Assembly: GCA_041659405.1 (NCBI GenBank)
Contig: JBAZYK010000005.1
Span: forward strand, 61,796 to 93,795
Direction: 5' to 3'
From: Candidatus Altimarinota bacterium
GTDB taxonomy: Bacteria > Patescibacteriota > Gracilibacteria > UBA1369
Length of the DNA stretch: 32,000 nt
Below are positions 23,602 through 32,000 of this stretch, in pieces; positions within the stretch are counted from its first letter, which is position 1; each line of letters begins with the position of its first letter. The notes under the pieces are model-generated. The model was not told the origin of the DNA, did not search any database, and was given only the letters and a program-made list of their open reading frames with translations. Position numbers and translations under genes: made by a program.

Positions 23602-23627
23602 GAGACAGTTTTTTAATTTTGAAAAAA

Positions 23628-25316
23628 ATGCGCCAAGAGATTCAAGAAAAACTCAAAAACATGCCTAATTTGCTTTCTATAGGCCAAGTTTCGGAGATTT
23701 TTGCAATCCATCCGGACACGCTTAGGAATTGGGAGAAAGAAGGCATTCTCGTGCCGTTGCGTTTCGGGCCACGCAAAGATCGCAAATACCGACCACAAGA
23801 TATTGAAGCAATTGTGGATAAGGTCGGCAGCCAACTGACTCTTCCTCAACTCGAAAGATTTTTGTGGAAAAGTGCGGATATTCTTCGCGGAAAGATCGAC
23901 AGTTCAGATTATAAAAAATATATTTTTGGGTTACTTTTTTACAAACGCATCAGTGATGTTTGGGATGAGGAACATGAAAAAGTAATGAGCGAGTTCAATG
24001 ATGAAAATCTTGCTAAAGCCGATTACAATCACCGTTTTCAGGTTACGGAAGACTGTAAATGGTCGGTCATAACGCAGCAGGCTGAAAATATTGGACCAAA
24101 ACTTAATGAAATTTTTGATAAGCTTACAAATGCCAACAGCCCAAAGCTTGATAAGATTTTTGATGATCTGGATTTTGCCAATAAGGACAAATTCCCGAAT
24201 GAAACACTTCAAAAGCTGATCAACCATTTTTCGCAGTATAGCTTTGCCAGCAATTATATCAGTTCGGATTTGCTTGGTGATGCTTATGAATATTTGATCA
24301 AACAATTTGCGGCCGATGCCGGCAAAAAAGGTGGTGAATTTTACACCCCGCGTGAAGTTGAACGCGTTATTATCGAGATCCTCAAGCCAAAAGAAAAAGA
24401 TCATATTTATGACCCAACAGTTGGCTCCGGCGGTTTTTTGTTGGAGTCTTATCATTATCTTAAAGCAAAGGCTGGCGAAAAAATTGCTAATACACTTTAT
24501 CTTTATGGGCAGGAAGCCAATCTTGGAACCTTTGCTATTTCCAAAATCAACATGTTCTTACACGGCCTTGATAGTGCCGATATTCGTCGAGGTGATACTT
24601 TAGCCAATCCTCAATTTTTAGATGACCTTGGGGCTTTGCAAAAGTTTGATATCGTAGTGGCAAACCCGCCGTATTCAATTAAAGAATGGGCAACGGATTT
24701 TTTTAGAACTAATAAGTTTGGTCGGCTTCAGGGCTACGATATGCCACCTGAAAAGAATGCCGATTATGCATTTATTCTGCATATTTTGAAATCACTTAAA
24801 TCAAATGGTCGTGCGGGCGTTGTGCTTCCTCATGGTGTACTTTTTCGTGGTGGCAGTGAAGGAAGAATCCGCGAACAGATCATCAAAAACGATTTACTGG
24901 AATGTGTTATTTCCATGCCTGCAAAACTTTTTTATGGTGTTGGAATTCCGGTTGCAATTTTAATTTTTAATCCCAGTAAACCGGACCACAAAAAGAATAA
25001 GATTATGTTTATCGAAGCCGAAAAAGATTATCTGGAAGGCAAAAATCAGAATTCACTGCGCAAACAGGATATTGATAAAATCGTTGGTACTTATGATTCC
25101 TGGAAAGACGTTGAAAAAATCGCCCGAATTGTGGATCTGAAAGAAATTGAAGGAAATGAATTCAACCTCAACGTTCGCCGTTACATTGATACGAGCGTGG
25201 AAGAAGAAAAGATCGATGTGGCTGCCGTTTGGCAGGAATTGCAAACCCTTGAACAAGACCGCGAAAAAATTGACCAGCAGGTGGCGAGTTATCTTAAAGA
25301 ACTTAAATATTTTTAA
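23628..25316 (+). CDS. hsdM: Type I restriction-modification system methyltransferase subunit (HsdM) with an N-terminal MerR-type HTH extension
   Basis: HsdM_N pattern LPQLERFLWKSADILRGKIDSSDYKKYIFGLLFYKRISD. AdoMet motif I DPTVGSGGFLL. Catalytic motif IV VVANPPYS (N6-adenine MTase). The first 65 aa or so (LLSIGQVSEIFAIHPDTLRNWEKEGILVPLRFGPRKDRKYRPQDIEAI) match the MerR-family HTH pattern. ATG at 23628; the ORF-track start 23619 is a TTG. Confidence 0.9.
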   Translation: MRQEIQEKLKNMPNLLSIGQVSEIFAIHPDTLRNWEKEGILVPLRFGPRKDRKYRPQDIEAIVDKVGSQLTLPQLERFLWKSADILRGKIDSSDYKKYIFGLLFYKRISDVWDEEHEKVMSEFNDENLAKADYNHRFQVTEDCKWSVITQQAENIGPKLNEIFDKLTNANSPKLDKIFDDLDFANKDKFPNETLQKLINHFSQYSFASNYISSDLLGDAYEYLIKQFAADAGKKGGEFYTPREVERVIIEILKPKEKDHIYDPTVGSGGFLLESYHYLKAKAGEKIANTLYLYGQEANLGTFAISKINMFLHGLDSADIRRGDTLANPQFLDDLGALQKFDIVVANPPYSIKEWATDFFRTNKFGRLQGYDMPPEKNADYAFILHILKSLKSNGRAGVVLPHGVLFRGGSEGRIREQIIKNDLLECVISMPAKLFYGVGIPVAILIFNPSKPDHKKNKIMFIEAEKDYLEGKNQNSLRKQDIDKIVGTYDSWKDVEKIARIVDLKEIEGNEFNLNVRRYIDTSVEEEKIDVAAVWQELQTLEQDREKIDQQVASYLKELKYF

Positions 25317-25943
25317 ATGGCTTATATATTTTTAGATGAAAGTGGAGATCTTGGATTTGGGAAAAAATCATCAAAGTTTTTTGTTATAACATTTCTTTTT
25401 GTTGAAAATAAAAGAGTTATCGAGAAGGTTGTTTCAAAAACTCATGCAGAACTTAAAAAAATACATCGAACAAAAAGTGGGATACTGCATTGCTTCCACG
25501 AAAAACCGATTACTCGTCAAAGACTTTTAGCAAGAATAGCTCAAAAGAACTGTATGATTATGACTATTTACCTTGAAAAAGAGAAAGTTTATACAAAATT
25601 ACCTGATGAAAAAATTGTTCTTTATAATTATGTAGCAAACATCCTCCTTGATCGTATTTTTAGCAAAAAGCTTCATGGTGATCATAAAGTCATTTTGATA
25701 GCTTCCAGAAAAGAAACTAACAAATTTTTAAATGAAAATTTCAAAAATTATCTTTCAAGTCAGATAAAAAATAATCATCAGATTGATCTGCAAATAGAAA
25801 TCAAGACGCCACATGATGAAAAAGCACTGCAAGCTGTCGATTTTATCAGCTGGTCAATTTATAGAAAATACGAATATAAAGATCACAATTATTACGATCT
25901 TTTTAAAGAAAAAATCGTGGAAGAAAACCCACTGTATAAATAA
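25317..25943 (+). CDS. DUF3800-family protein (uncharacterised)
   Basis: The N-terminal YIFLDESGDLGF and C-terminal LQAVDFISWSIYRKYE match the two conserved blocks I recall for DUF3800. Its ATG immediately follows the hsdM stop (TAA ATG, no spacer), implying co-transcription or translational coupling. Confidence 0.7.
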   Translation: MAYIFLDESGDLGFGKKSSKFFVITFLFVENKRVIEKVVSKTHAELKKIHRTKSGILHCFHEKPITRQRLLARIAQKNCMIMTIYLEKEKVYTKLPDEKIVLYNYVANILLDRIFSKKLHGDHKVILIASRKETNKFLNENFKNYLSSQIKNNHQIDLQIEIKTPHDEKALQAVDFISWSIYRKYEYKDHNYYDLFKEKIVEENPLYK

Positions 25944-26079
25944 CAAAACCCCTTATGCTATTTACGAGCAACCATTCCGGAAGCCCACATAAGAGGAATT
26001 ACTTGTTCTGGTAATAGTATAGCGTGGACTATACCTTGCGGTCAATATCTATAACATTATGAAATTATATAAATAAATT

Positions 26080-26244
26080 ATGGATACCAATTTAATGCTA
26101 ATATCTCACAATAAAAAATTTGACGAAATAAAAGTTAAATCAGCCTTTACATTGGGTAGACAAGATGTTGTGGATCATCTTGCTGATATCAGCAAAGTGA
26201 TCGTGGGGTGGGTACAATTTGTACCTATCCTTGACGCAAAATGA
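26080..26244 (+). CDS. Possible small protein (54 aa), hypothetical
   Basis: Hand-translated ATG...TGA ORF (MDTNLMLISHNKKFDEIKVKSAFTLGRQDVVDHLADISKVIVGWVQFVPILDAK). It is below the 60-aa cutoff of the ORF track and lies in the otherwise unexplained 319-nt gap 25944-26262. No other support. Confidence 0.25.
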   Translation: MDTNLMLISHNKKFDEIKVKSAFTLGRQDVVDHLADISKVIVGWVQFVPILDAK

Positions 26245-26262
26245 GATGTAAATATGGGCTAG

Positions 26263-26715
26263 ATGGTATTATTTGAATCAATTATGGAATTTAAAAAATT
26301 TAAACCTATGAGTATCTACGATGCCGCCAAGGATGCCGCTAAAATCCTACAGGAAGCAGGAAAAATCAATGAATATCAAAAAATTCTTGATTTGATCGAT
26401 GATTCATTAAACAAAAGGCATAAGATTGATGAGCTCGAAATGGAAAATCGTGAACTCAAAGAAAAGTTGAAGACCAAAGATGCTTATAGCTTCAAAAATA
26501 ACGCTTATTGGCATAAAGAAACTGGCGATGGCCCTTTTTGTTCAAGATGTTTTGATAAGCATAAGGATTTGATTAGGATTATTCCTGATTCTAACAACAG
26601 CAGTTGGGCCAAATGCCCTGAATGTAAAAATAGCGTTAATTACACGGGAAAAGAGGTGAAGCCACGAAGTTACAATGTCTCTGGCGAACATTTTGATCGA
26701 TTTTCAGCTATTTAA
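26263..26715 (+). CDS. Hypothetical coiled-coil protein with a C-terminal CxxC...CxxC zinc ribbon
   Basis: 150 aa. Helical/coiled segment KIDELEMENRELKEKLKTK, then CSRCFDKHKDLIRIIPDSNNSSWAKCPECKN. It ends 8 nt before the next gene. Confidence 0.6.
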   Translation: MVLFESIMEFKKFKPMSIYDAAKDAAKILQEAGKINEYQKILDLIDDSLNKRHKIDELEMENRELKEKLKTKDAYSFKNNAYWHKETGDGPFCSRCFDKHKDLIRIIPDSNNSSWAKCPECKNSVNYTGKEVKPRSYNVSGEHFDRFSAI

Positions 26716-26723
26716 ATTTGTTT

Positions 26724-27398
26724 ATGACAAAAACACCCACACCAAGAAAAACAAGAGATGAATGGCTCAACTTCTGTCAAAGCTATCTATCATTGGCATT
26801 ACTTGCCTGCGATGAAATGCTTGCGAAAAAGTATACAGTTAAATTGATGGATGTGGACATTCCAGCATACAGTGTTCCTTCTTTGTTTTTACCAACTATA
26901 TATAACATCAAACATGGGCTGGAGGTCTTTCTTAAGACATTAAGAATTATCCTTAACGCCCAGTCTAACCCTAAAGAAGGCAAACATAGTAATCTGGAAA
27001 TTTTTACATTATTAAAAAAAGAAATTGATTCTAAACAAATTCAAAGAGTTATTGAATCAGAATGTAAAAAGAAACCGGATGATACAAATCTTAAACTCTT
27101 ACTGAAAGATCTCGCAAATCTAAGCACTTATGTTGATAAAATAGAAAGCTTAGTCATCAAATATGAACACTGTGAAATAATTAAAAACAAAATCCAGACC
27201 GATTTTACGATTATTGATGAGGACAACACAGCTTTTCGCTATCCACAAAATAGCCTTCAAATAAAATTAGACTATCATAAAATTTTAACAAAAATAACTC
27301 CTGAAGATATCCAGGAAATACGGACCGATGCCGAAGCACTTGTAATCAATCTTAACAGTTTAGGGTTCATATTGGATGTTTATAGTCAGTATAAATAA
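26724..27398 (+). CDS. All-alpha protein, HEPN-domain-like (tentative)
   Basis: The layout resembles classical HEPN (PF05168-type) four-helix bundles: EWL...L.LA helix, IKHGLEVFLKTL (cf. the EKALKAL helix), GKHSNLEIF (cf. THDL..L), AFRYP (cf. the RYP motif), then ITPEDIQEIRTDAEAL. No clear Rx4-6H RNase motif is seen. ATG at 26724; the track start 26718 is a TTG. Confidence 0.55.
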   Translation: MTKTPTPRKTRDEWLNFCQSYLSLALLACDEMLAKKYTVKLMDVDIPAYSVPSLFLPTIYNIKHGLEVFLKTLRIILNAQSNPKEGKHSNLEIFTLLKKEIDSKQIQRVIESECKKKPDDTNLKLLLKDLANLSTYVDKIESLVIKYEHCEIIKNKIQTDFTIIDEDNTAFRYPQNSLQIKLDYHKILTKITPEDIQEIRTDAEALVINLNSLGFILDVYSQYK

Positions 27399-27411
27399 TA
27401 TCTTAAAAATC

Positions 27412-27822
27412 ATGCTTACACCGTTAAAAATCACACGAGATAAAGGCGTTGATCTGAAAAGGTTAAATAAGCTTAGAAGGCAAGGCTTAATTAAAATTTA
27501 TGATGTAAAAATTGAAAATGAAACATCTAAGGTACCTGATAAGATCTTGCCTGTCGGAGTTTGGGGACATACAAAATGGGACGAGTGTATATGGGGGGAT
27601 GAGAAGGATAATACCTTTGATAAGACTCTTGAAATTATTGGAAAAGAAAACATCAAGGATGCTATACATTTAGAAGCACATATCCGTAATAAATTTGACT
27701 ATTTTGTTACGAATAATCCAAACGATTTTATTAAAAATGGAAAAAGAGAAAAACTAGAGTTGGAATTTCCTATTTTAAAGATTTTAACAATAGAGGAATT
27801 GGAAAAAATATGTCAGAAATAA
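27412..27822 (+). CDS. Small hypothetical protein with a PIN-like C-terminal half (tentative, possibly degenerate)
   Basis: DAIHLEAHIRNKFDYFVTNNPNDFI resembles the D..HLA.A....D.FvT.D.DF strand-helix-strand of PIN/VapC domains, but has TNN in place of T-x-D. The start is set at ATG 27412 to avoid overlap; the ORF-track start is 27376. Confidence 0.5.
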   Translation: MLTPLKITRDKGVDLKRLNKLRRQGLIKIYDVKIENETSKVPDKILPVGVWGHTKWDECIWGDEKDNTFDKTLEIIGKENIKDAIHLEAHIRNKFDYFVTNNPNDFIKNGKREKLELEFPILKILTIEELEKICQK

Positions 27823-27835
27823 TTTTAAGAAACTT

Positions 27836-28987
27836 ATGAATACTTTGATTCAAAATAAAGATATGCAAAAAACTGTTAAATTTGATCAGCATATAGTTTT
27901 AAACTACGGCTCACCTTTGCCAGCAACAGATAGACTTAAAGGTAATTTCCCTGTTTATGGTTCAAATGGCGTTGTCGGTCATCATGATCAATTTTTAATT
28001 CAAGGACCAGGGATTATTGTTGGGAGAAAGGGAACTATTGGCGCCGTTGTTTGGTCTGAGTCTAGCTTTTGGCCAATTGATACGACTTATTATATTACTG
28101 CTGATGAATCTGTTGATTTACGATGGCTTTATTACAAGTTACAAACTTTAGGATTACAAAAAATGAATATGGCTGGTGGAGTGCCTGGTTTAAATAGAAA
28201 TGAAGTTTATAATTTGAAAATTTCTATTCCTTCAAGACAAGTTCAGCAGAAAATTGCAGAAATTTTGTCAAAAGTTGATGAAGAGATCGAAAAGGTCGAT
28301 CATGCCATAGAAAAAACGGAACAGCTCAAAAATGGCCTGATGCAGGATTTGCTGACGAAAGGCATAGGACACAGCAAATTCAAGAAAACTGAGCTGGGGG
28401 AGATCCCGGAGGAATGGAAAGTTGTAAAATTAAGAGAAAAAACCGTAGGCATTCAATATGGCTTTACTGAGAGCTCTTCAAATCAAAATATTGGACCAAA
28501 GTTTTTACGCATTACAGACATTGTTGATGGAAACGTTAATTGGGATTCGGTGCCTTATTGTGAGTGCCCAGAAGAACAAATTAATAAATATTTATTAAAA
28601 AATGAAGATATTGTATTTGCAAGAACAGGCGCGACTACAGGCAAAAGTTTTTACGTCCAAAATCCACTATTTGCAGTTTTTGCGTCTTATCTTATTAGGG
28701 TTATCTTAGACCAAAAGACAGGTTTTGTTTCAAAATTTGTATATTATTTTTTCCAAAGCGACAAATATTGGAAACAAATTAAATCATCCATATCTGGAAG
28801 CGCACAAGGAGGGTTTAATGCTTCAAAATTGGGTGATTTAAAACTGCCCTTTCCTCCACTTTCTGAACAGTTACAAATATCATCTATTTTATCTTCTATC
28901 GATGATAGAATGGCTATAAGCAAAAAAGTTAAATCAAAACTTGGACAGCTTAAGGAAGGGTTAATGCAAAATCTTTTTAATAACTAA
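27836..28987 (+). CDS. hsdS: Type I restriction-modification system specificity subunit (HsdS), two target-recognition domains
   Basis: Two TRD-like halves (FPVYGSNGVVGHHD...IIVGRKGTIGAV and LRITDI..GNVNW...IVFARTGATTGKSF). Each is followed by a conserved helical spacer (IPSRQVQQKIAEILSKVDEEIE...LKNGLMQDLLTKG and LPFPPLSEQLQISSILSSIDDRM...LKEGLMQNLF). Confidence 0.9.
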   Translation: MNTLIQNKDMQKTVKFDQHIVLNYGSPLPATDRLKGNFPVYGSNGVVGHHDQFLIQGPGIIVGRKGTIGAVVWSESSFWPIDTTYYITADESVDLRWLYYKLQTLGLQKMNMAGGVPGLNRNEVYNLKISIPSRQVQQKIAEILSKVDEEIEKVDHAIEKTEQLKNGLMQDLLTKGIGHSKFKKTELGEIPEEWKVVKLREKTVGIQYGFTESSSNQNIGPKFLRITDIVDGNVNWDSVPYCECPEEQINKYLLKNEDIVFARTGATTGKSFYVQNPLFAVFASYLIRVILDQKTGFVSKFVYYFFQSDKYWKQIKSSISGSAQGGFNASKLGDLKLPFPPLSEQLQISSILSSIDDRMAISKKVKSKLGQLKEGLMQNLFNN

Positions 28988-28993
28988 TGTTAA

Positions 28994-29698
28994 ATGAATT
29001 TGATGACTAAAATTAAATTGCCTTATATAGCTGCCCTTTTCGCATTAATAAGCTTTTTATTTGCTTTGGGTATTTCATATAATAATATTTTTCAAAATTC
29101 CAGTTGGTTTAACACACTCATAAATCCAATTTCTGCAGGAGATAAAAGCTCTATTACTCAAACCTCTTGGACTATTGCGGGATTTTTCCTTGCGGCTTTT
29201 GGATTAAGTGAATTGATAGAAAAGTTAAATCGAAAAATCGCTCCAGGATTCCTGATGGATAGATCTGAGAAAATACTTATAACGTTAAAATTGCCACCTG
29301 CCGTTTTTGATATCAGTTTTAGTGTTGTTAACCGGGGAAATAAATCGTTAAAGCCTGAGGATCATGTCTATTTCCAGTTGTTGATTCCTTCTGAAATATT
29401 TAAGGAGGTACTTTATATTAAATACAATGGTGAAGGTAATTTAATTGGACCACTAAAGAGAGAAAATTCCGTAAAAAATGGATATGTGACTATTGGTGGC
29501 ATCATCAATGATGCCATTCACCCTAAAAGATGTATTGAGCAATTTAAGATTAAAATGTCTTTTTCTAAAATCGGGAAATATAAAATATTATATTTTTTTA
29601 ATACAGAGAATGGTTTTTATCCCAAAAAGTATAATGAAATAAATTTAACAGGTTTAGAGGAATTAGAAATAGATGTTGAAAATCAACTTACTGATTAA
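28994..29698 (+). CDS. Two-TM membrane protein with a C-terminal beta-rich soluble domain, hypothetical
   Basis: 234 aa. Hydrophobic helices YIAALFALISFLFALGISY and WTIAGFFLAAFGLSELI. It starts 6 nt after the hsdS stop and ends 8 nt before the hsdR ATG, so it is almost certainly part of the operon. Confidence 0.6.
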   Translation: MNLMTKIKLPYIAALFALISFLFALGISYNNIFQNSSWFNTLINPISAGDKSSITQTSWTIAGFFLAAFGLSELIEKLNRKIAPGFLMDRSEKILITLKLPPAVFDISFSVVNRGNKSLKPEDHVYFQLLIPSEIFKEVLYIKYNGEGNLIGPLKRENSVKNGYVTIGGIINDAIHPKRCIEQFKIKMSFSKIGKYKILYFFNTENGFYPKKYNEINLTGLEELEIDVENQLTD

Positions 29699-29706
29699 AT
29701 CTCCTT

Positions 29707-32000
29707 ATGCGCTTCAACGAACAATACACTGTCGAAAATTTTATTCTGGATTTCTTTCAGAAGCCTTTGGGTTATGAATATATTCCGCCGCAGAAGTTTG
29801 CCGCTTTTAGGCAGTTTGAAAATGAGTATGTTATTACTCCCCTTTTGCTTGATGCTGTTAAGAAAATCAATAAAATACATGATGATACTGAAGCGCAAAA
29901 TGTTGTCCGTGAGATTAAAAAGATTGATACAAATGAAGGTTTTTTGAATTTGATGCGGAATGGAATTAACCTGAAAGATCCCGCGCAGGCAGGTCGCATG
30001 CGCGATTATTTTGTGGTCGATTTTGAGAATCTAAAAAATAATCATTTTGTGGTTACAAATCAGTTTTATTTTGAGGGAAATGCGGAAAATATTCGTCCGG
30101 ATATTTTGGTGTTTTTGAATGGCTTGCCGATTGCCGATATAGAGGCTAAAAGCCCTACTGCTGCCAATAATGTTAATTATGAAAAGGCCATTGATCAGCT
30201 GAAACGTTACGAGAAAAATGCCTGGAAACTTTTTTTGCCGAACTGTTTTAATGTTGCTACAGATGGCCTTAAAACTGTTTATGGTGCTACATATAGCCCT
30301 AAACAGCACTTTTTACAGTGGCGCGATGATGTATTAGCTCAGTTTTTTGGTGGTGAATTGGAAATGACTTTGGGGGCTCTATTCCATAAAGAAAAACTGC
30401 TGGATATAATCAAGAATTTTATTCTGTTTGAAAAGGAAAAAGAGCGAACCACCAAAAAGATCTGTCGTTATCAACAATATCGGGCAACCAACCTGATTGT
30501 GGATCGCGTAAAAGGCGCCGAAAAGAAGCGTGGGCTTATTTGGCACACCCAGGGCAGCGGCAAGAGCATTACGATGTTTTATACAGCCTGGAAGCTGCGT
30601 TTTGATCAACAACTAAAGAATCCAAAGATTTTTGTTTTGGTGGATCGCATTGATCTTGATGATCAGATTTATCAAACATTTACAAACTGTGGAGGGGAAA
30701 ACGTGGTGCGGGTGACTTCACGCAAGGATTTGGAAAGCAAAATTCGCTCACCGGAACGTGGTATTTTCATTTCAACAATTCAAAAATTCAGCGAGCTTGA
30801 AGACGAAATTAAAAGTCTGGACCACAATACAATTGTCCTTTGCGATGAAGCCCATCGTGATAATGAAGGCGTTGCCGCAATTAACCTGCGTTCGGCGCTA
30901 CAGAATGCTTTCTTTTTTGGGTTTACCGGAACTCCAATTGACAAAAAAACTCTCAATACTCATCGCAATTTTGGTGAAGAGGGCGAGCGTTATTTGGACT
31001 ATTATTCCATTCAGCAAGCGATTGAAGATGGCACAACCCTGCCGGTAACTTTTGAAGCCCGTCTTTCCAAGTTTTTTATTGATGAAGAAAAAATTGATCA
31101 GCAGTTTGAAGAATTTGCCGCTGATTTAAGCGAAGAGCAAAAAACAAAACTTATTCAAAAATATGGCAAAAAAGCTTCATTGGTAAAGCTGGATAAGCGC
31201 ATGGAAGCCATTGCGCAGGACATTGTTGAGCATTATAAGCTTTATGTGGAGCCAAATGGCTTTAAAGCGCAAATTGTTTGCGCAGACCGTGAAGCCTGTG
31301 TGAAATATAAAAAACTTTTGGACAATTTGATTCCCGCAGATTGGTCGGCCATTATTTACTCTGCAGGCGATCCAAACAGTAGCAATGAAAGCGAAGAGGA
31401 GACAAAAAAATACAATACAACCAAGCCGGAAAGAGAAAGAATGATTGAAAATTTTAAAGATCGTGAAAATCCGTTACGATTTTTAATTGTCTGCGACATG
31501 CTTTTGACTGGTTTTGATGCGCCAAATGAACAGGTAATGTATTTGGATAAGCCTTTGCGTGACCATAATTTGCTGCAGGCTATTGCGCGCACAAATCGGG
31601 TTTATCCTAATAAGGGTTGTGGGAAAATTATTGATTATTACGGAATCACCCGTAATTTGTATGCTGCGCTGGATTTTGATGAAAGCATTGTCAGTTCAGC
31701 AATGTTGAATATTGATGAGTTTAAAAAGCGATTTACGGCTGTTTTAGACGAAGTTATGAAGCTATTTAATGGTTTCAACATTGAAGATCCTTCTTTGGGG
31801 AATTTGCGCAGATGTTTGAAGGTTTTTGTTGATAATGCTGAACAGCAAAACTATTTCCGGACGTTATATACAGAATTAAAACAACTTTTTGAAATTTTAT
31901 CTCCTGATCCTTTTTTGAAGGAGCATTTGCGTAAATTTGAATGGTTGACGAGTTTGTTTTTGGCTTTTACTAAAGAATTTGGAGAACAAAATGGTGGCCA
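29707..32000 (+). CDS. hsdR: Type I restriction enzyme R subunit (HsdR), 3'-truncated by the window edge
   Basis: Hand-translated from ATG 29707 (MRFNEQYTVENFILDFF...). Open to the window end, which is why it is absent from the ORF track. N-terminal PD-(D/E)xK nuclease motif RPDILVFLNGLPIADIEAK. Helicase motif I WHTQGSGKSITM, motif II VLCDEAHR, motif III FGFTGTP, and later LIVCDMLLTGFDAP and QAIARTNR. Confidence 0.9.
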   Translation, partial: MRFNEQYTVENFILDFFQKPLGYEYIPPQKFAAFRQFENEYVITPLLLDAVKKINKIHDDTEAQNVVREIKKIDTNEGFLNLMRNGINLKDPAQAGRMRDYFVVDFENLKNNHFVVTNQFYFEGNAENIRPDILVFLNGLPIADIEAKSPTAANNVNYEKAIDQLKRYEKNAWKLFLPNCFNVATDGLKTVYGATYSPKQHFLQWRDDVLAQFFGGELEMTLGALFHKEKLLDIIKNFILFEKEKERTTKKICRYQQYRATNLIVDRVKGAEKKRGLIWHTQGSGKSITMFYTAWKLRFDQQLKNPKIFVLVDRIDLDDQIYQTFTNCGGENVVRVTSRKDLESKIRSPERGIFISTIQKFSELEDEIKSLDHNTIVLCDEAHRDNEGVAAINLRSALQNAFFFGFTGTPIDKKTLNTHRNFGEEGERYLDYYSIQQAIEDGTTLPVTFEARLSKFFIDEEKIDQQFEEFAADLSEEQKTKLIQKYGKKASLVKLDKRMEAIAQDIVEHYKLYVEPNGFKAQIVCADREACVKYKKLLDNLIPADWSAIIYSAGDPNSSNESEEETKKYNTTKPERERMIENFKDRENPLRFLIVCDMLLTGFDAPNEQVMYLDKPLRDHNLLQAIARTNRVYPNKGCGKIIDYYGITRNLYAALDFDESIVSSAMLNIDEFKKRFTAVLDEVMKLFNGFNIEDPSLGNLRRCLKVFVDNAEQQNYFRTLYTELKQLFEILSPDPFLKEHLRKFEWLTSLFLAFTKEFGEQNGG

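Follow-up and report, generated by a model that had tools for sequence, protein, structure and literature searches.

A HEPN-T-like gene and a divergent PIN_3-like gene between hsdM and hsdS of a type I restriction-modification operon: probably independent cargo, not a dedicated pair

Introduction

Defence genes embedded in restriction-modification (R-M) operons have been a productive source of anti-phage effectors, with PrrC, DarTG2 and the HEC systems among them. In the prr locus of Escherichia coli, the gene order is prrA-prrB-prrC-prrD, with prrC between hsdS and hsdR, and PrrC itself is a fusion of an ABC ATPase with a HEPN domain that bears the Rx4-6H motif. DarTG2 has been described as embedded in the type I R-M system of enteropathogenic E. 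coli (PMC12255303), and a 'guilt by embedding' study has found thousands of genes embedded in BREX, DISARM and type I systems, the same work describing HEC-03, an ABC ATPase with a VapC-like PIN protein whose anti-phage activity was shown, and HEC-08, a HEPN protein with zinc ribbons and a canonical Rx4-6H motif (bioRxiv 10.1101/2024.01.29.577857). What is more, proteins of the HEPN-T group have been recorded as clustering with R-M operons, and the HEPN clades linked to R-M systems number at least 16 (Anantharaman et al. 2013, PMC3710099). Here, we analyse a stretch of 32,000 nucleotides from Candidatus Altimarinota bacterium (assembly GCA_041659405.1, contig JBAZYK010000005.1, positions 61,796 to 93,795; hereafter the window), in which two adjacent genes, A (26724-27398) and B (27412-27822, both in coordinates of the window), stand between hsdM and hsdS of a type I R-M operon. 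An original prediction, made from the letters of the window, had taken them for a HEPN-like and a PIN-like gene that might form an RNA-targeting effector/regulator pair in the position of PrrC. The account that we favour is that the hsdM-hsdS gap is a cargo bay of several independently acquired accessory defence genes, of which A and B are two, and that they are no dedicated pair.

The arrangement as such, namely toxin or defence genes embedded in a type I operon, is known; what is new is the two undescribed sequence families. Like PrrC of EcoprrI and like RloC, A and B are RNase-fold genes embedded in, and apparently co-transcribed with, a type I R-M operon, and a back-up role can be proposed for them. 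However, while PrrC is a large fusion protein encoded between hsdS and hsdR, A and B encode small single-domain proteins and lie between hsdM and hsdS, so that the PrrC position ascribed to them holds only loosely. Neither belongs to PrrC or RloC by any PADLOC match, PrrC models included, and neither has an ATPase domain or an Rx4-6H motif. As in the cargo formed by DarTG2, HEC and PDC genes, which includes PIN and HEPN effectors, independent defence or toxin genes are lodged among the subunit genes of a host defence system, but unlike the known embedded cargo, neither A nor B matches any PADLOC v2.0.0 model. The ATPase-plus-PIN layout of HEC-03 has a likeness at one B locus (L014), although the window has no such ATPase, and A often has a zinc-ribbon neighbour, as in HEC-08, but lacks Rx4-6H. 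Finally, the eukaryotic protein Swt1 combines a PIN domain and an inactive HEPN domain in a single polypeptide (PMC3710099); the domain types are the same here, but they are encoded by separate bacterial genes that are not co-conserved.

Results

A and B are adjacent only in the window

Both open reading frames (ORFs), on the + strand, are real, in that they belong to conserved families and are not chance ORFs. Gene contexts were compared across about 35 loci in total, many of them on short metagenome contigs; the counts are descriptive, kinship among the loci having been reduced only by dropping near-identical contigs, and some B loci were gathered with a degenerate DNA pattern (DYFVTEDxDF) that does not capture the TNN subgroup of B described below. 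An A-family gene is present in 0 of the 24 other distinct B loci, and a B-family gene in 0 of the 10 other distinct A places. Likewise, of 401 genomes sampled evenly across the phylum, 5 carry B and 7 carry A, and the two are found together only in the genome of the window. Co-occurrence rules out an obligate A-B pair, and the proposed effector/regulator pair is not supported. A and B are probably separately mobile, R-M-embedded cargo genes, adjacent only in the window and forming no fixed pair. As for a phage origin of the two genes, it was not upheld, since a search of IMG/VR with two peptide patterns per family found neither.

The A homologues stand in varied surroundings. One lies just 5' of hsdS in another type I operon (L095), one 3' of DpnI in an integrase island (L093), two adjoin ResIII-type enzymes (L091, L087), one adjoins GmrSD and a nucleotidyltransferase (NTase) (L084), one is near RNase H, a homologue of the window's zinc-ribbon protein and an AadA-type NTase (L088), and one adjoins a LexA-C5-methylase fusion (L096). 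Tandem A paralogues are found among Fic and SLFN/AlbA genes (L001), and two further places are uninformative (L085, L086).

Several observations on these neighbourhoods can be added. The two paralogues at L001 (4114-4611 and 6023-6742) are 1.4 kb apart, one of them truncated to 165 aa, in a defence-like island. Zinc-ribbon proteins recur beside A-family genes: a homologue of the window's zinc-ribbon protein (26263-26715) is encoded at L088:6261-6638 on the - strand, two genes from the A homologue, and unrelated CxxC...CxxC proteins are encoded directly 5' of A homologues at L095:3680-3865 and L001:5411-5947. Directly 3' of an A homologue, the genes at L096:4590-5120 and L084:8696-9712 each carry a canonical-looking HEPN motif, one having R-N-N-F-E-H and the other the Apea-like R-S-Q-F-L-H-G. 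A second, canonical HEPN is therefore an occasional neighbour of A-family genes.

The B family mostly rides type I R-M operons

Genes of the hsd type flank B in 16 of 25 distinct B loci, and in 10 loci hsdS follows directly 3' of B, often with an overlap of 10-15 nt. The R-M systems that host B are diverse, their HsdM being 26-71% identical to that of the window, and the named genomes that carry B homologues are mostly metagenome-assembled genomes of the Patescibacteria (candidate phyla radiation, CPR) type. The remaining 9 of the 25 loci have no hsd gene in the available flank, the prophage-like region in L083 being an example. The B family, in short, is probably specialised in riding type I R-M operons, typically just 5' of hsdS. 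On a single metagenome contig (Ga0256830_1016781, L013:368-1951), B and HsdS are even fused in frame, a 527-aa ORF joining a B-family domain (residues 10-143) to a full-length HsdS with no linker; the fusion may be a Rosetta-stone hint that B and HsdS interact, or it may come from a lost stop codon or an assembly error.

On the other side, the gene 5' of B differs nearly every time. The kinds seen are a transmembrane (TM) protein with tetratricopeptide repeats, AbiTii, DUF5677, small TM proteins, a PD-(D/E)XK protein, an AAA_21/AAA_15 ATPase, KilA-N, Fic, GNAT, a 79-aa basic protein, an unassigned 210-aa protein and hsdR itself. No detectable domain is common to these upstream partners or shared by them with A, and no VapBC-type antitoxin domain is present in the genes 5' of B-family members, which encode diverse proteins of 79-482 aa. 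A cryptic HEPN that would always stand 5' of B is ruled out as well: hhalign of the A profile with four upstream partners, namely DUF5677, AbiTii, a 169-aa protein and a 472-aa protein, gave probabilities below 1%.

Three of the B loci show further features of their own. Directly 5' of B, L012:3285-3935 and L021:3284-3955 each encode a Cas4-like PD-(D/E)XK protein with terminal Cys clusters; the two are 43% identical, and the B proteins next to them share 56% and 40% identity with that of the window. No other upstream partner of B was seen to be conserved across such divergence. At a third locus, 3' of B, L024:4739-5608 encodes an Abi_2/AbiD-like HEPN (motif R-N-A-C-A-H-H), apparently split into two ORFs.

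Protein B as a divergent PIN_3-like domain

B is 136 aa long, and an in-frame ATG at 27376 is a possible alternative start, with which it would overlap A by 23 nt. Its homologues number about 30, at 44-70% identity. T8, D10, E35, D83, D96, Y97, F98 and T100 are invariant in the family, and D105 is found in 25 of 26 members. The 'TxD' position reads TED in 18 of the 26 and TNN in 8, the window's copy included. Scans of B against Pfam, NCBIfam, PADLOC v2.0.0 and PHROG gave no match, Pfam models other than those of PIN domains matched no B-family member significantly, and the B gene is not among the matches of a PF13470 scan of the window's own genome.

The link to PIN domains comes from comparing profiles. 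In particular, hhalign of the B family against 30 PF13470-verified proteins (PIN_3) gave a probability of 95.7% at E 1e-8 in local mode and of 94.9% over 113 columns in global mode, with 'ITRD' paired with 'vlDTNV', and 'DAxxLEAHIRxxxDYFVTxD' and 'IVTPxEL' paired with their PIN_3 counterparts. Against 30 ordinary PF01850 PINs, the match was weaker (E 4.3e-4, probability 34%). From whole genomes, the B profile also retrieves two PIN_3/PIN proteins above Pfam cut-offs (L089, L090), and the distant PIN_3 match at L089 has a MazE/AbrB antitoxin upstream. The AlphaFold (AF2) model of B, with a predicted local distance difference test score (pLDDT) of 90.4, has an alpha/beta architecture, with strands of the parallel type at 5-9, 27-32, 97-99 and 122-123. 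A relation to CeuE was discarded, this being the only match, and a spurious one, in a profile search of PDB sequences.

With PIN_3 (PF13470) and VapC proteins, B shares the strand-1 Asp followed by a small residue, the Glu after strand 2, a length of about 135 aa, a 'D-A-x-x-L-E-A' helix, a 'D-Y-h-V-T-x-D' strand, and a terminal 'I-V-T-P-x-E-L' strand, the original prediction's C-terminal motif DAIHLEAHIRNKFDYFVTNNPNDFI being present in the translation. It differs from them in having a beta-rich loop in place of helices at residues 36-68, in matching no PIN in Pfam or by Foldseek, and, in the window's copy, in having TNN for TxD. From VapBC modules it differs in that no small DNA-binding antitoxin stands upstream and in the attachment of its family to type I R-M operons. 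Judging from its sequence, B is a divergent PIN_3-like domain with a remodelled middle part (residues 36-68). Most relatives of PIN_3 and VapC are RNases, and PIN toxin modules have been known from the same kind of gap, such as vapBC21 and vapBC42 between hsdM and hsdS in Mycobacterium tuberculosis H37Rv.

Protein A as a HEPN-T-like protein with an insertion

A is 224 aa long from its ATG, an alternative TTG start at 26718 also being possible. The motifs first picked out in it (EWL, IKHGLEVFLKTL, KHSNLEIF, AFRYP and ITPEDIQE...AEAL) are all in the translation. No model of Pfam, NCBIfam, PADLOC v2.0.0 or PHROG matches it, and a word-indexed search found one homologue; an exhaustive profile search yielded 225 representative clusters at E<=1e-3, 30 of them at E<=1e-30. 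Over 50 aligned members with 25-46% identity, F17, N61, H64, E67, K71, H88, D165, N168 and P174 are invariant and W14, K63, F171, Y173, N176 and D202 nearly so, and R172 is nearly invariant in an alignment of 15 sequences. The absence of a canonical Rx4-6H motif from A, noted at the outset, is borne out and extends to the 50 aligned relatives, in which no such motif is conserved.

HEPN models reach this family from a distance. Weak Pfam matches to PF05168 (HEPN) occur in 14 of the 50 members, the best at E 1.3e-4; one member, P0183, is above the curated cut-off (26.6 vs 22 bits), and the homologue of genome G185 lies at the threshold (21.7-22.1 bits) in a genome scan, while the window's own A has no match at E<=1 and is therefore below the gathering score. 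When the A family was compared by hhalign with 25 canonical PF05168 proteins harvested from genomes, W14, E67, K71 and H88 were paired with the canonical W, 'EK', 'K' and 'tHdL'; these 25 sequences themselves have the 'RYP' but no conserved His at +5 to +7. The AlphaFold (AF2) model of A (pLDDT 86.3) is a bundle of long helices (7-34, 51-78, 90-116 and 193-223), with a three-helix insertion at 103-148, a beta-hairpin at 161-182 that bears the D165-x2-N-T-x-F-R-Y-P-x-N176 loop, and a long C-terminal helix. In a Foldseek search of the PDB, the HEPN domain of sacsin (3o10_C) had the top probability (0.97) and was second by E-value, and a second HEPN structure, 4nqf_A, came at rank 44. A profile search of PDB sequences gave only a spurious match to ParA, and that relation was rejected.

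The branch of HEPN proteins that A most resembles has been described before. Namely, in the HEPN-T/AF0298 branch the R of Rx4-6H is kept and the H is lost, while helix 2 contributes an acidic residue and the segment joining it to helix 3 an alternative conserved His; this site has been proposed as catalytic (PMC3710099). A has this pattern, with R172 nearly invariant and H88 and E67 invariant; a missing Rx4-6H is the normal state of the branch and not decay. With AF0298-type HEPN-T proteins A also has in common the helical bundle of its modelled core, the Trp of helix 1, the E-x3-K of helix 2 with 'H-[DN/S]-x-x-[LIF]' following that helix, the 'RYP' that precedes the final helix, the alternative His in place of that of Rx4-6H, and the R-M operon setting. 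Unlike them, A is below every Pfam threshold, has an insertion of about 60 residues (the three helices), bears on its beta-hairpin the family-specific D-x2-N-T-x-F-R-Y-P-x-N loop, has the extra invariant residues N61, H64, D165, N168 and N176, and has no NTase partner in the window. By its sequence, A fits an HEPN-T (PF05168/AF0298-type) protein and a new, insertion-bearing member of the AF0298 branch. The lack of an NTase partner, also noted at the outset, was confirmed: none is encoded in the cassette, where a Pfam scan found no NTase domain in any protein, and a HEPN-MNT (minimal nucleotidyltransferase) toxin-antitoxin module is thereby ruled out. NTase-like genes are near A homologues in 2 of the 10 other places (L084, L088).

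Taken together, the HEPN and PIN assignments of the original prediction hold at the superfamily level, for A by the 14 of 50 weak PF05168 matches (one over the cut-off), the sacsin HEPN and the aligned hallmark residues, and for B by the PIN_3 profile match and the PIN_3 toxins retrieved. The support comes from the profile-profile match of B to PIN_3 and from the weak match of A to HEPN, while Foldseek returned no PIN. That said, calling the two proteins 'degenerate' was too strong: the His that A lacks is usually missing in HEPN-T/AF0298 proteins, and TNN in B is a trait of a subgroup that keeps the invariant Asp nearby.

The operon and its host genome

The operon is laid out as follows, with coordinates in the window.

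23619..25316, + strand: hsdM, type I R-M methylase with an N-terminal MerR-type helix-turn-helix (Pfam N6_Mtase 1.6e-106, HsdM_N 8.7e-27, MerR_1 2.9e-09)
25317..25943, + strand: DUF3800 cargo gene, its start directly 3' of the hsdM stop (Pfam DUF3800 6.1e-15)
25944-26262: spacer of 319 nt between the DUF3800 gene and the zinc-ribbon gene
26263..26715, + strand: coiled-coil protein with a C-terminal zinc ribbon, 8 nt 5' of A (DUF7837, weak match; phrog_1244 4.6e-09)
26724..27398, + strand: protein A, HEPN-T-like (PF05168-type), with a helical insertion and a beta-hairpin, no Rx4-6H
27412..27822, + strand: protein B, divergent PIN_3-like domain of the TNN subgroup
27836..28987, + strand: hsdS, specificity subunit, 13 nt 3' of B (Pfam Methylase_S 9.9e-39, two stretches)
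28994..29698, + strand: protein with a hydrophobic N-terminal region, in the hsdS-hsdR slot (no family match)
29707..31998, + strand: hsdR, running past the end of the window (ORF open at its 3' end; phmmer matches to HsdR)

The HsdR genes of other loci that phmmer matched to the last of these bear Pfam HSDR_N/ResIII/T1R_D3 domains. The genes of the operon are all co-oriented, with gaps of 0-13 nt and the 319-nt spacer as the sole exception. On the + strand between A/B and hsdS there is no terminator-like site, and promoter- and terminator-like sites are not in excess; no Rfam family is found in 25000-30000. GC content is 31-36% in the cassette and hsdS; it is higher in hsdM (37-40%) and in most of hsdR (38-43%). 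The host genome is of 1.5 Mb and 98.5% complete, its phylum-mates having 0.6-2.1 Mb.

Two of the neighbouring genes deserve mention. The DUF3800 gene that adjoins hsdM is matched by a homologue of 49% identity at L004:6002-6628, in another type I operon that carries B; there the homologue stands between hsdS and hsdR, and the locus also holds a second DUF3800 paralogue. DUF3800 looks like another recurrent R-M rider. It is the product of 28994-29698, 234 aa long, that occupies the true PrrC position, namely the hsdS-hsdR slot. It has no significant match in Pfam, NCBIfam, PADLOC or PHROG, and two putative TM helices can be recognised in it by eye. Small TM proteins also stand 5' of B in L010, L016 and L017.

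Discussion

The hsdM-hsdS gap of the window is, in our judgement, probably a bay in which accessory defence genes have accumulated independently of one another. This account draws on the fold relationships and residue conservation of A and B, on their gene contexts and patchy distribution, on the modular shuffling of their neighbours, and on their failure to co-occur. As for function, B would probably be a metal-dependent nuclease, co-transcribed with hsdS and having no conserved antitoxin, and A probably a metal-independent RNase or an RNA binder, its putative alternative site being formed by Glu67 of helix 2, by His88, which lies between helices 2 and 3, and by Arg172 of 'RYP'. The most likely role of each would be that of an autonomous, second-line, PrrC-like back-up effector, which would damage RNA when restriction fails or is inhibited; such a role has been proposed for HEPN proteins linked to R-M systems (PMC3710099) and demonstrated for PrrC. 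Nuclease activity, targets and trigger are here what we infer from the sequences.

Several points weigh against this account. For A, the sequence link to HEPN is weak (hhalign probability 13-20%, E 2e-3 local and 2e-4 global), and so is the Foldseek match to the sacsin HEPN (E 0.16, TM-scores 0.36/0.54). For B, Pfam PIN models match 0 of 26 family members at E<=10, and Foldseek searches of PDB and BFVD with its confident model returned only generic Rossmann-like folds at E>=0.02 and no PIN, so that the PIN call rests on sequence profiles and not on structure; what is more, the Asn in place of the TxD aspartate makes catalysis by the window's B uncertain. Finally, in most loci with a callable upstream ORF, the gene 5' of B runs in the same direction and overlaps B or lies close to it, and the PD-(D/E)XK+B pair is conserved in two diverged loci. 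This tight upstream coupling, together with the PD-(D/E)XK+B pair, leaves room for B acting with whatever lies upstream of it, A included.

One could, accordingly, imagine a two-gene module in which B is a constant PIN and the gene upstream a swappable sensor, regulator or neutraliser, so that in the window A and B would cooperate. In its favour, besides the coupling and the recurrence of PD-(D/E)XK with B in L012 and L021, one can cite the likeness of the AAA_21 ATPase+B pair in L014 to HEC-03 and the A-B spacing of 13 nt, or the 23-nt overlap if B begins at its alternative start. However, the partners have no detectable domain in common and none is related to A, B in L024 follows directly on hsdR with no upstream partner, gaps of 333 nt (L159) and 88 nt (L070) separate B from the gene 5' of it, and A stands in 10 other distinct places without B. 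Moreover, B and hsdS, like all the other genes of these operons, are tightly spaced as well, so that the spacing is not specific to the upstream pair. On balance, we consider such a module unlikely.

Another line of thought looks downstream. Three things suggest that B may be controlled through the R-M complex, a reading that we hold to be rather improbable: its fidelity to the position before hsdS, the lack of any antitoxin that is conserved, and the one fusion. In the most specific form of this reading, B would be a PIN nuclease dedicated to type I R-M systems and docking on HsdS, an antitoxin-less guardian freed upon inhibition or disassembly of the R-M complex, and it would be, by analogy, a small PIN-based functional counterpart of PrrC; this form, too, we regard as rather improbable. 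A related proposal, which we hold to be a shade more doubtful still, is that B is an accessory subunit or guardian attached to the complex via HsdS, either held inactive there and freed when restriction is inhibited, following the logic of PrrC, or modulating the R-M enzyme, with A as unrelated cargo. The placement directly 5' of hsdS in 10 loci, the seamlessness of the L013 fusion, the persistence of the association across R-M families with HsdM of such low identity, and the precedent of PrrC all point this way; the 9 of 25 loci whose available flank has no hsd gene and the confinement of the fusion to one metagenome contig point the other.

It is quite improbable, to our mind, that one or both proteins are non-catalytic relics of RNase folds, serving as binders of nucleic acids or ligands or as an immunity or antitoxin-like factor. 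The Asn at TxD in the window's B and the lack of Rx4-6H in A would agree with this, and the variable neighbours of B (TM proteins, nucleases, Fic, GNAT) resemble toxins; the NetFlax study reportedly described promiscuous antitoxin domains paired with many toxins. Yet D10, E35, D83 and D96 of B are strictly invariant, as D105 is in all but one member, and N61, H64, E67, K71, H88, D165 and N168 of A have stayed invariant, and R172 nearly so, over such low identities, a pattern typically seen at active or binding sites. Moreover, it is the alternative-His site of HEPN-T that has been proposed as catalytic (PMC3710099).

Returning to the cargo-bay account, the locus adds two families to the pool of embedded defence genes. 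One is a HEPN-T-like family with an alternative-histidine site, a type of site for which we know of no demonstrated catalysis so far. The other is a PIN_3-like family that is missed by the models of Pfam, NCBIfam, PADLOC and PHROG and that is unusually strongly attached to hsdS. The linkage of B to hsdS is the only lead that is not routine. If A and B are ordinary stand-alone toxin-like cargo, the outcome is one of routine annotation. If, on the other hand, B were indeed a guardian tethered to the R-M complex, it would provide a second and much simpler model of restriction back-up, as well as a marker for defence islands in CPR bacteria, whose immune repertoire is poorly known.

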